Part shown: positions 1,874 to 4,491 of the stretch, in pieces
How positions within the stretch are numbered: position 1 is the first letter of the stretch
Layout of the letters: the number at the start of each line of letters is the position of its first letter
DNA from: an uncultured Clostridia bacterium
GTDB lineage: Bacteria; Bacillota; Clostridia; TANB77; CAG-465
DNA: 64,000 nucleotides
Direction of reading: 5' to 3'
Assembly (NCBI GenBank): GCA_934130325.1
Contig: CAKOYA010000005.1
Span: forward strand, 56 to 64,055
Program-made: the position numbers and the translations under genes
Notes under the pieces: model-generated
The model's database searches: none
Told to the model about the DNA's origin: nothing
Seen by the model: only the letters and a program-made list of their open reading frames with translations

Positions 1874-2872
1874 TTAAATATTTAGATTCAATATCTGAAT
1901 TTCTGAATTTCCTGCATTATCCTCTACATAAACTGTTATTTTATCATAATCCTTCTTAAAATATAATAAATTATCAACTACATCAATTCCTGCATTTTGG
2001 AAATGTGATTTATCGCACTCCCCATAATCATACTTCACTTTTTTAATACCACTTAAATCATCTTTTAATGTTGTAATTTCTTGATATGACACAATATCAC
2101 CATTTTCAATCTTTACTTGCTCGCCAAACTCAATTGTTGGCGAAGTTTTATCTACATTACTAACAGTATAAACTGCATTTTTTTGGTTGTCATTATTATC
2201 TTTATATTTAATATTTAATATATAATTTCCTGACTTATTAACCAAATACTCATTATATACCAATCCTTTTGTTTTAAAAACCAAATCTGAATTTTCAGTT
2301 TCATTAATAGTATACTTTATTGGTATTTTAACATTTAATACTACATCTTTATTTGTCCATTCAGTAGTACTAGCCTCAAACAAAATAACCGGTGAATTAA
2401 CAGTATTCTTTCCACTATTATAATTTAATATATTTTTTATATCATCAGTTAATGAATAATAAGTTTTATCACCAATTTTTATTCCCATCGCATAGTATAC
2501 TATCCCTGTCTTTCTTGAGACCACATAAGCATCATAATCTCCGTTTTCATTTCTCCCATATTTTAGCGAATTTATTCCAATCTTATCATAATCAATTTGG
2601 TACAATGTTATTTTATTATTTTCTACTTCCTCACGAAATTGTTCATTAACATTACTAATTACAATCGCGTCCTTAACTGGAAAAGTAGCGTTATTTTTAG
2701 TATAATATGCATCTACAGCATTTTGTATCATATTAATTTCTGTTCCAAAAGCTATCTTTTTTGCATTATTTGCAGTATTAATACCAGACAAAGTTACACT
2801 AGTTAAAAGTGCAGCTGTTATAGCTACAGACGCAACTAATGCTATTAACGATATTCCTCTTTTATCTTGCAT
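1874..2872 (-). CDS. Pilin/pseudopilin-like protein with a non-canonical class-III-like leader and a C-terminal Ig-like domain (paralog 3 of 3)
   Basis: The preferred start is ATG 2872 (RBS ggaaggaag 7 nt upstream, 2 nt after the upstream gene's stop). The N-terminus is MQDKRG|ISLIALVASVAITAALL. It is followed by AKKIAFGTEINMIQNAVDAYYTKNNATFPV, matching the GspG/ComGC-type A..i..i..A...Y......P segment. Shared motifs are TGIVYYAMG...YYSLTDD, DDLSGIKKVKY and VEDNAGN. Confidence 0.6.
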   Translation of the reverse strand: MQDKRGISLIALVASVAITAALLTSVTLSGINTANNAKKIAFGTEINMIQNAVDAYYTKNNATFPVKDAIVISNVNEQFREEVENNKITLYQIDYDKIGINSLKYGRNENGDYDAYVVSRKTGIVYYAMGIKIGDKTYYSLTDDIKNILNYNSGKNTVNSPVILFEASTTEWTNKDVVLNVKIPIKYTINETENSDLVFKTKGLVYNEYLVNKSGNYILNIKYKDNNDNQKNAVYTVSNVDKTSPTIEFGEQVKIENGDIVSYQEITTLKDDLSGIKKVKYDYGECDKSHFQNAGIDVVDNLLYFKKDYDKITVYVEDNAGNSEIQILNLNI

Positions 2873-2874
2873 AT

Positions 2875-3963
2875 TTATTCTTCCTTCCAAACATTTTTTG
2901 TTATGCATTTATAATTTCCTGCATTATCTTCTACATATATAGTGATATATTTTGTACTTTGATCAAATTCTATTATATCACCATTTAACTCTATCCCATT
3001 AGTTTTAAAATATGTAGCTATTTCATCAAAATCATCATTTTTATTTGTATCAGATATGTTCTCTCTTTCATATTTAATAGATTTAATTCCACTCAAATCA
3101 TCTGCAACATTTTTTACCTCTACATAACTGTAATGTGTCCCTTCCTCTCTTGAAATTAAATCTATTCTATCTGAGACCTCAAAGCTTGGAGGTACGTTAT
3201 CAAAATTTGTAATTGAAAATGTTTGAGTTTGGGAATTACCATCACCATATTTAACCTTTATGGAATAATTTCCAATTATATCATCTACTATGCATTCGTT
3301 ATTACTGTCCTTAGTTATAGTATACTTCTTTTCTCCATTAGAAGAATATCTAACAGAAACATCTACCTCTTTTCCATTATCTGTATACTTATCTGAGACA
3401 ACAATCCTTGTTGTGATAATATCTGCAGTCCAATTTAAGGTTGAAGGAATAAAAGAAATACCATCTTTAGTAACTGAATTATTATTTGTAGGAACATAAT
3501 TTATAATTTTTTTCAGATCATCTGTCAAAGTAAAATACGTAGTACTACCAACATTAACTCCTTTTAAATAATATACCTTTCCTGTTGTCTTAGATAAGGC
3601 ATATATATTTTTGTCAGATGTATTTCCTTTTCCATATATTCTTTCAATATTACCTAACTTGTTAAAATCTAATACATACAACACCACTATATTATCACCA
3701 GTTTTATCTTCATCATTAAACTGCTCAAGATCATTTTCTTCTACATTATCTAAATCCACATTTATACTACTTAAAATAGGATATTCGTTATATTTATCTA
3801 AATAATTGTTAACCGCTTCTTGAATATATGCAATTTCAGTTGCAAATTTAGTTTTATTTGAATTATTTAAAATACTCATAGAAGAAATAGTCACAGTTGA
3901 AATAAATATAATCATAATTATAACTGCTGAAATAATAGTCATGAAAGTTATACCTTTTTTCAT
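2875..3963 (-). CDS. Pilin/pseudopilin-like protein with a non-canonical leader and a C-terminal Ig-like domain (paralog 2 of 3)
   Basis: The preferred start is ATG 3963 (RBS agggag 8 nt upstream); the ORF-track start at 3984 is TTG. The N-terminus is MKKG|ITFMTIISAVIIMIIF. Downstream motifs are KTKFATEIAYIQEAVNNYLDKYNEYP, TGKVYYLKG...YFTLTDD, DDLSGIKSIKY and VEDNAGN. Confidence 0.6.
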   Translation of the reverse strand: MKKGITFMTIISAVIIMIIFISTVTISSMSILNNSNKTKFATEIAYIQEAVNNYLDKYNEYPILSSINVDLDNVEENDLEQFNDEDKTGDNIVVLYVLDFNKLGNIERIYGKGNTSDKNIYALSKTTGKVYYLKGVNVGSTTYFTLTDDLKKIINYVPTNNNSVTKDGISFIPSTLNWTADIITTRIVVSDKYTDNGKEVDVSVRYSSNGEKKYTITKDSNNECIVDDIIGNYSIKVKYGDGNSQTQTFSITNFDNVPPSFEVSDRIDLISREEGTHYSYVEVKNVADDLSGIKSIKYERENISDTNKNDDFDEIATYFKTNGIELNGDIIEFDQSTKYITIYVEDNAGNYKCITKNVWKEE

Positions 3964-3996
3964 ATACAAATCTCCCTTTTTCAATACTAGCTATTA

Positions 3997-4491
3997 TTAT
4001 ATGCCTAATCTTGTTTTTAACTCTTCAGTCAAAGTATAATATACATTATCTCCAAAATTTTTACCTTTTAAATAGTAGACAATACCTGTATTTTCAGAGA
4101 CACAATATATATTTTTATCATCTACAGTACCATGACCATTTTTACACTCATTTACATCTGCCTCATACAAGTCAATTCGTTTTAAAATTATCATAGAATT
4201 TTCCATTTCAACTTCTTCTTTGCTAAACTGAGTTTTATCATTATTATTCATTTTAGATAAATCCACAACTATATCTTCATCCTCAGAAACTACAGGGTAT
4301 TTGTTATTTTTAAAATGATATATATCAACTAATTTTTGAATACTATATATCTCATTTGCAAAATCTTTCTCCTTAGTTTGAGTATACACAAACTCAAAAG
4401 ATACTGTTATTGTAGTAATTAAAATTAATACTACTGCAACAGTTGCAATCAAAGCCATTAAAGAAATTCCATTCTTAGATTTCATTTTCAT
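3997..4491 (-). CDS. Short pilin/pseudopilin-like protein, core only, with no Ig-like tail (paralog 1 of 3)
   Basis: N-terminus MKMKSKNG|ISLMALIATVAVVLIL, then KEKDFANEIYSIQKLVDIYHFKNNKYP and TGIVYYLKG...YYTLTEE. RBS gaggtg. This is the first gene of the operon. Confidence 0.6.
   Translation of the reverse strand: MKMKSKNGISLMALIATVAVVLILITTITVSFEFVYTQTKEKDFANEIYSIQKLVDIYHFKNNKYPVVSEDEDIVVDLSKMNNNDKTQFSKEEVEMENSMIILKRIDLYEADVNECKNGHGTVDDKNIYCVSENTGIVYYLKGKNFGDNVYYTLTEELKTRLGI

Follow-up and report, generated by a model that had tools for sequence, protein, structure and literature searches.

Glu5 is treated as a near-universal signature of bacterial type IV pilins on which PilFind and the models TIGR02532 and PF07963 rely, and current models assign the docking of subunits in all bacterial type IV filaments to the salt bridge between Glu5 and the N-terminus. 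Archaeal proteins with class III signal peptides, among them pilins and the sugar-binding proteins of the bindosome, lack Glu5 and use a methylase-less peptidase, and they include many diverse surface proteins. Glu5 is held to neutralize the N-terminal amine of the neighboring subunit (PMC10191384) and is typical but not obligatory, the exceptions being GspK, PilK, and PilA of Streptococcus sanguinis (PMC9934059). GspK and PilK are the Glu5-less, tip-sited, and assembly-priming cap subunits of the GspHIJK/PilHIJK core complex (PMC10191384, PMC9934059). In S. sanguinis, the small Glu5-less pilin PilA, which no tool detects, stabilizes a modular lectin pilin, and the three proteins PilA, PilB, and PilC cap the pilus (PMC9934059). 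Here we analyze a three-gene operon, designated A-B-C, in a 64,000-nt stretch of DNA (hereafter, the window) from an uncultured Clostridia bacterium (GenBank assembly GCA_934130325.1, contig CAKOYA010000005.1, positions 56 to 64,055). The source genome is 1.31 Mb, 99% complete, and ~27% G+C; its contigs are denoted by C and a number, the window being C5. With a probability of roughly 0.7, we consider A, B, and C to be true type IV pilin superfamily proteins, belonging to a Glu5-less branch in uncultured small-genome gut Clostridia and processed and assembled as proposed below.

The closest analogue is the minor-pilin operon PilA-PilB-PilC of S. sanguinis, which is also a three-gene operon in a monoderm (PMC9934059, PMC8179133). 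The likeness extends to the role proposed here, that of a tip-located adhesive and priming complex, and to the longer relatives of B and C, whose ConA-like/Laminin_G_3 module belongs to the same superfamily as the lectin module of S. sanguinis PilC. In S. sanguinis, however, only PilA lacks Glu5 and PilB and PilC have canonical signals, whereas A, B, and C all lack it. Moreover, A, B, and C are all paralogous in the pilin module, their operon lies apart from the pil cluster, no known domain family fits the tails of B and C, and the heads of S. sanguinis PilA, PilB, and PilC have no detectable sequence similarity to them. In GspHIJK/PilHIJK only the cap is without Glu5, whereas here Glu5 is also missing from the candidate major pilin and from about 20 further pilin-like proteins; no match to GspK was found in PDB sequences with the module profile A3 (see below) or in PDB folds with Foldseek. 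A, B, and C have in common with GspG/T2SSG and type IVa pilins (TIGR01710, PF08334, PF07963) the order of leader, Gly, and hydrophobic alpha-1 as well as the Y....YP motif of alpha-1C, but they lack Glu5 and Phe1, their head differs, and they score far under the cut-offs. Unlike archaeal systems, the genome encodes bacterial PilB, PilT, PilC, and PilM/N-like machinery and a peptidase with the bacterial G-x-G-D-V-K-L motif. The most interesting point is that the Glu5 pattern is inverted relative to S. sanguinis and GspHIJK/PilHIJK. When the literature was searched for major pilins without Glu5, the cases that turned up were all cap subunits or minor pilins, which is no proof of novelty.

An earlier sequence-only reading of the window had marked three paralogous pilin-like proteins of 164, about 362, and about 332 aa on the minus strand. 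The three open reading frames (ORFs) lie where it placed them and encode 164, 362, and 332 aa from starts supported by ribosome-binding sites (RBSs). Gene A (4491–3997) starts at ATG 4491 after RBS GAGGTG and encodes the pilin module alone. Its product begins with MKMKSKNG, followed by ISLMALIATVAVVLILITTITVSF; the predicted 8-aa leader peptide ending at Gly-1 (4491–4468, minus strand) would end at the proposed prepilin-peptidase cleavage site. Gene B (3963–2875, minus strand) starts at ATG 3963 after RBS GGGAG with the leader MKKG; an alternative longer start, TTG at 3984, is without an RBS. Its product consists of the pilin module (residues ~1–165) followed by about 197 aa of beta-rich tail, in which the motifs DDLSGIK..KYE and VEDNAGN occur. 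The ATG of gene C (2872–1874, minus strand), at 2872, is 2 nt past the TAA stop of B and is preceded by RBS GGAAGGAAG; the product has the leader MQDKRG, the pilin module, and a ~170-aa tail paralogous to that of B (34% identity). B and C are full-length paralogs, and their 160-aa module with conserved C-terminal tails of 170–197 aa corresponds to the layout that defines modular type IV pilins, a pilin moiety extended at the C-terminus by a further module, as set out for S. sanguinis PilB and PilC.

The N-termini quoted in that reading are exact, and the paralogy was borne out, with A, B, and C sharing 39–42% identity over the first ~160 aa. By direct reading, each protein has a basic leader of 4–8 residues ending in Gly, then 22–28 uncharged residues with no A-x-A site after them. 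Gly-1 is nearly invariant in the alignment of 39 sequences of the module (profile A3). The pseudopilin-like segment FA.EI..IQ..V..Y...N..YP and the block TG.VYY..G...Y..LT, both pointed out earlier, are invariant or nearly so in the module alignment. Phe+1 and Glu+5 are absent, again as described: mature +1 is Ile in all three proteins, and +5 is Ala in A, Thr in B, and Ala in C. A canonical Sec signal peptide with signal peptidase I cleavage, named in the same reading as an outcome that would speak against pilins, does not fit, because the hydrophobic region is too long (22–28 versus ~7–15 residues) and no A-x-A follows it.

With profile A3, we queried the complete set of PDB chain sequences. 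The top matches were Geopilin PilA-N (E 8e-4), GspG (2.5e-3), and S. sanguinis PilE1 (0.07), followed at weaker E-values by gonococcal pilin, TcpA, MshA, and CFA/III amid a few non-pilin chance matches. In the alignments, KKG↓ISLIAL stands opposite KKG↓FTLIEL (the arrow follows Gly-1), and the match extends over the entire alpha-1 helix as far as Y..YP. Profile A6, built from B/C-type proteins alone, had the same pilin matches as its top three. The GspG model TIGR01710 gave weak in-register matches to A, B, and C over its first ~65 positions only (E 0.005–0.04); at 13.8–16.8 bits against a cut-off of 88.85, they do not qualify as GspG major pseudopilins (TIGR01710/PF08334). With PF07963, 2 of 25 B/C-type relatives reached E 0.0034. 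We also compared the module by hhalign with the pilins encoded directly upstream of pilD-pilB-pilT-pilC in the source genome and four related genomes. The alpha-1 helices matched with a probability of 97.7% and an E-value of 1.5e-12 over 57 columns, and hmmsearch gave E 1e-9 to 5e-12; the head domain was not common to the module and the cluster pilins in the profile comparison. For the fold, a single-sequence AlphaFold model of A (pLDDT, the predicted local distance difference test score, of 50) was discarded in favor of an AlphaFold 2 (AF2) run on a multiple sequence alignment (MSA) of the 39 sequences. This MSA-based model (pLDDT 84; predicted template modeling score 0.71) has a single continuous helix, residues 11–62 (52 residues), and a beta head, that is, a lollipop topology.

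The operon had been described as standing without assembly genes nearby. This holds for the window's contig, in which no Peptidase_A24, T2SSE, or T2SSF match was found, but not for the genome, where the suggested search for a PilD/ComC-type peptidase and for pilB and pilC found all of them. Contig C29 carries a complete type IV pilus cluster. Its genes encode, in order, a PilM/N-like protein (543 aa), three small membrane proteins (249, 146, and 171 aa), a 147-aa pilin (C29:9003–9446) starting MKNSKKG↓ISLIVLVITIIV, a protein with the PilD N-terminal (A24_N) domain (C29:9623–10411), a further pilin-like protein, and PilB, PilT, and PilC. This machinery is bacterial and similar to that of type IVa pili (T4aP), with PilB/PilT/PilC and PilM/N-like components, and is not archaeal. 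The 147-aa pilin, in the major-pilin position, has the N-terminus G↓ISLIV as in the A-B-C family and is without Glu5. The sole Peptidase_A24 of the genome (C8:35408–36163; 251 aa) contains SIDFRYQLIPD and GMGFGDVKL motifs but is devoid of a methylase domain.

Within the same genus, all 12 tested genomes with family matches have a ~450-aa PilC and an A24_N gene, and none of the 11 genomes without any match has either (Fisher p about 7e-7, raw, uncorrected for phylogeny). The 11 genomes without PilC, A24_N, and Glu5-less pilin-like genes, out of 32 congeneric genomes sampled, are G054, G078, G087, G093, G096, G102, G108, G116, G140, G144, and G150; in them, the whole pilin repertoire is lost together with the pilus machine. 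Nine of the 11 still keep Peptidase_A24. Therefore, the peptidase has other substrates, and the pilin-like genes track the pilus machine. As a discriminator the presence of Peptidase_A24 was useless, nearly all genomes of the order keeping one, whereas PilC and A24_N discriminate.

An ORF scan of the genome found about 20 genes and two fragments starting (K/R)x-G↓(I/V)(S/T)(L/M/F) without Glu5. They amount to about 2% of the genes and range from 127 to 2396 aa; the recognizable tails are Big_12, Big_2, and FGE-sulfatase-like domains. The sequence-only reading was right in seeing pilin-like proteins with a non-canonical, class III-type signal, two of them modular; the leader, however, is neither peculiar to this operon nor a sign of the archaeal-type or minor-pilin status that it suggested, since it is the usual form in about 20 genes including that of the major-position pilin. 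The only class III-like site with Glu5 in the genome is internal, KKG↓VFISELVV in the C29 A24_N protein. Elsewhere in the order, other families have a PilD and, after it, a minor pilin of its own that bears Glu5 (KG↓IALVE, KG↓YSLIE). The window's family has lost the peptidase half of PilD, and its methylase domain (A24_N_bact) is fused in frame to the Glu5 minor pilin. The fusion is in effect a prepilin with a ~140-residue leader holding the methylase domain. It is kept in three genera (relatives L024:7830–8615 and L025:5451–6242), and A24_N frames of 260–295 aa recur in most genomes of the family. The short pilins directly upstream of pilD start G↓ISL(I/V)(V/A)L, without Glu5, in these relatives (L024:8736–9170, L025:4812–5222), and another relative has three tandem G↓ISL-type short pilin copies without Glu5 in the major-pilin position (L026:4197–5404). 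One sister family keeps canonical pilins, with three tandem KKG↓FTLIEL copies (L023:5215–6758) and N_methyl matches to E 6e-11. The missing Phe1 and Glu5 thus characterize the system throughout the lineage and do not mark A, B, and C as defective.

Several further observations concern this repertoire. Two very large proteins with the Glu5-less pilin N-terminus are encoded on C21 (C21:2371–9561 and C21:10312–12900). The 862-aa protein has Big_12 repeats; the 2396-aa protein is repetitive, beta-helix-like by eye, and combines the module with the D.SG.K...DNAGN arrangement seen in B and C. Two short ORFs (41–51 aa) at C7:27374–27529 and on C3 around 10227 have only the pilin N-terminus G↓ISLIVLI and are probably remnants of decayed pilin-like genes. 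The idea that pilin anchors are used for want of sortases was rejected, as four sortase genes are present.

The family to which A, B, and C belong is large and unannotated, and neither Pfam nor NCBIfam has a model for it. From 1.84 billion proteins, the module profile retrieved 135 cluster representatives at E<=1e-30; at E<=1e-3 the number rose to 1512, the weaker matches probably being alpha-1 only. Among the 150 best matches (146–1822 aa), the module always begins within the first few residues, and the longer relatives carry Big, FGE-like, or Laminin_G_3 domains. All 145 family representatives whose N-terminus is intact have Gly-1, K/R dominates at -2 and -3, and the 4-residue leader MKKG occurs in 84 of the 145. 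Position +1 is I, V, or F and position +5 is A, S, V, T, or I; E or D occupies +5 in none of the 145. Every named homologue is a 'hypothetical protein [Clostridia bacterium]', with Laminin_G_3 in longer members as the sole precomputed Pfam domain. The 35 homologues of gene A are all unnamed, and the longer ones among the 110 homologues of B, all 'hypothetical', carry PF13385 (Laminin_G_3). The profile also matched proteins from further families of the order (E 1e-9 to 1e-20), but over alpha-1 alone and not the whole module; we claim the full module only for the window's own family. The related loci come from metagenome-assembled genomes of rabbit, rumen, and other gut sources.

A cassette of a small subunit (~160 aa) followed by one or two modular subunits (340–730 aa) recurs in 12 related loci, directly after truB in 4 and with truB nearby in 2 more. 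A belongs to a small-subunit clade that unites 22 of 25 small members with a support of 0.985. Between orthologues, the identity of module and tail is 57% and 53% for B and 60% and 42% for C, so that tail and module are conserved to a similar degree; on these values, the notion of tails that vary far more than the module was rejected for the A-B-C operon. Because the cassette recurs, A falls in the small-subunit clade, and the tails are conserved, the operon looks like a conserved core set and not a variable cargo locus.

Five independent lines, namely the profile searches, the fold, the machinery in the genome, the homology to the cluster pilins, and the phyletic profile, speak for the pilin reading of A, B, and C, which is largely supported. 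Several results weigh against it. Solved pilins are only weakly similar in sequence (E about 1e-3), and the similarity is restricted to alpha-1. The absence of Phe1 and Glu5 counts on the same side. Of the family models put forward for checking in the sequence-only reading, PF07963 (N_methyl) had no match to A, B, or C at E<=1 and TIGR02532 was not among their NCBIfam matches. The comparison of AlphaFold models with pilin folds, also proposed there, yielded the lollipop topology and no significant match: a Foldseek search of the PDB with the AF2 model placed pilins at the top of the list only at probabilities <=0.23, with Clostridioides difficile PilA1 as the best match (E 2.3). Because Foldseek gave no significant neighbor, the head of A, as modeled, does not appear to be a recognized pilin head. 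The operon is unlinked to the pilus machinery, and the co-occurrence pattern may be a single loss event in one subclade.

Taking A, B, and C as pilins, we propose the following mechanism. A-B-C would be transcribed from its own promoter past the truB terminator, in keeping with the anatomy described below. The three prepilins would enter the membrane via the 22–28-residue hydrophobic alpha-1N segment, and the basic leader of 4–8 residues would be removed after the invariant Gly by the single A24 peptidase (C8:35408–36163). The mature proteins would then be extracted and assembled by the C29 PilB/PilT/PilC/PilM-N-like machine together with the C29:9003–9446 pilin, a link suggested by homology and co-occurrence. 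The small subunit A would act as the conserved partner or adaptor of B and C, which as modular pilins would present their beta-rich tail domains outside the cell.

By analogy with S. sanguinis PilA-PilB-PilC, A, B, and C may make up an adhesive complex that sits at the pilus tip or primes assembly, a proposal to which we give slightly less than even odds. We put forward more tentatively a pilus driven by PilB/PilT/PilC in which the major pilin and almost all other pilins are Glu5-less, one Glu5 minor pilin is fused behind an orphaned A24_N methylase, and the truB-linked A-B-C is the conserved core that both primes and caps the filament and bears its adhesive modules. Such a Glu5-less pilus would mean archaeal-like docking chemistry on a bacterial machine. 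Although its T4aP-type machine is otherwise ordinary, the lineage as a whole appears to dispense with Glu5, the major-position pilin included. If these proteins are true pilins, annotation systematically misses the pilin repertoires of uncultured gut Clostridia, and the lineage offers a natural Glu5-less system for probing the roles of Glu5 and N-methylation in assembly. It would also be a second, independent case of the S. sanguinis design, in which a small Glu5-less partner accompanies modular adhesin pilins.

An unlikely alternative, though less so than the two that follow, is that the proteins are cleaved by the peptidase and depend on the type IV pilus machine but form short wall-spanning stalks (a short pseudopilus) or stay membrane-anchored, exposing enzymes or binding domains as in the archaeal bindosome or the pseudopili of type II secretion systems. 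The 1.3-Mb genome has about 20 pilin-like genes, many with very large products (to 2396 aa) that carry Big_12, Big_2, FGE-sulfatase-like, or Laminin_G_3 domains; in number and size, these are more than one pilus tip could plausibly carry, and the evidence from homology and co-occurrence applies to such display equally well. Real retractile pili are nevertheless indicated by the PilT retraction ATPase and by the short major-position pilins, in tandem in one relative, and the conserved cassette of small plus modular subunits resembles tip complexes.

The same gaps that weigh on the pilin reading could instead suggest surface proteins functionally unrelated to type IV pili, held by an uncleaved type II signal anchor or exported through Sec and signal peptidase I: Glu5, Phe1, and an N_methyl match are all lacking, the head is without a significant structural match to pilins, and the operon is distant from the pil genes. 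This is improbable in view of the invariant Gly-1 and of the 4-aa leader MKKG in most members, and the 22–28 uncharged residues without a following A-x-A are, by direct reading, too long for the hydrophobic region of a signal peptidase I substrate. Furthermore, alpha-1 is homologous to that of the cluster pilins over its whole length, beyond the transmembrane part, and the 11 congeneric genomes without PilC and A24_N have lost every gene of this kind along with them. Least probable is that A, B, and C are clients of a Tad-like locus on C2 with CpaE-/CpaF-like ATPases instead of the T4aP-like cluster on C29; although a T2SSE-family ATPase (394 aa) and a neighboring 405-aa CpaE/TadZ-like protein (by eye) are encoded at C2:42674–45053 and the only peptidase is without a methylase domain, like TadV (PMC10191384), the N-terminus fits the C29 cluster pilin and not Flp-type G-x-x-x-x-E-Y signals, and Peptidase_A24 persists in 9 of 11 PilC-less congeners whereas the G↓ISL genes track PilC.

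The Tad-like locus as a whole extends over C2:42674–46576. Beside the 394-aa protein with the T2SSE ATPase domain and the adjoining CpaE/TadZ-like protein, it encodes two ~250-aa membrane proteins, which the T2SSF model did not detect. Possibly, the locus represents another type IV filament system that draws on the single peptidase.

The tails of B and C, which the sequence-only reading called Ig-like, do exist as paralogs. The label itself is an unproven guess from sequence; the matches that bear on it are weak, Ig_3 at E 0.027 and an OmpL47-type domain at E 0.019. No other match for the tails was found by phmmer and A6 searches of PDB sequences or by a Pfam scan of 25 B/C-type members.

The operon lies downstream of another gene string on the minus strand, the order being infB-rbfA-nrnA-truB (ending at 4662), a hairpin, a promoter, and then the tightly packed A-B-C. 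The hairpin (4649–4623, minus strand), directly past the truB stop at 4662, is terminator-like, with a 12-bp stem containing 3 GC pairs and a T-rich tail, and divides the infB-rbfA-nrnA-truB unit from the pilin operon. The promoter-like site TTGACA-17-TAAAAT reported for A-B-C was found at 4548–4520 on the minus strand and agrees with the sigma-70 consensus at 11 of 12 positions. Next after C is a gene (428–1684) for a multi-pass family 2 glycosyltransferase (GT2), in which family-model scans found GT2 domains. The GT2 gene is preceded by a promoter-like site (1748–1720, minus strand), a perfect TTGACA-17-TATAAT with 12 of 12 consensus matches, and the stretch from gene C to this site showed nothing resembling a terminator. 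Since the GT2 gene has its own consensus promoter, it is probably a separate transcription unit outside the pilin operon. The adjacency noted in the sequence-only reading is real; a functional link between the operon and the GT2 gene is unsupported, given this promoter and a synteny kept in the closest relatives only.

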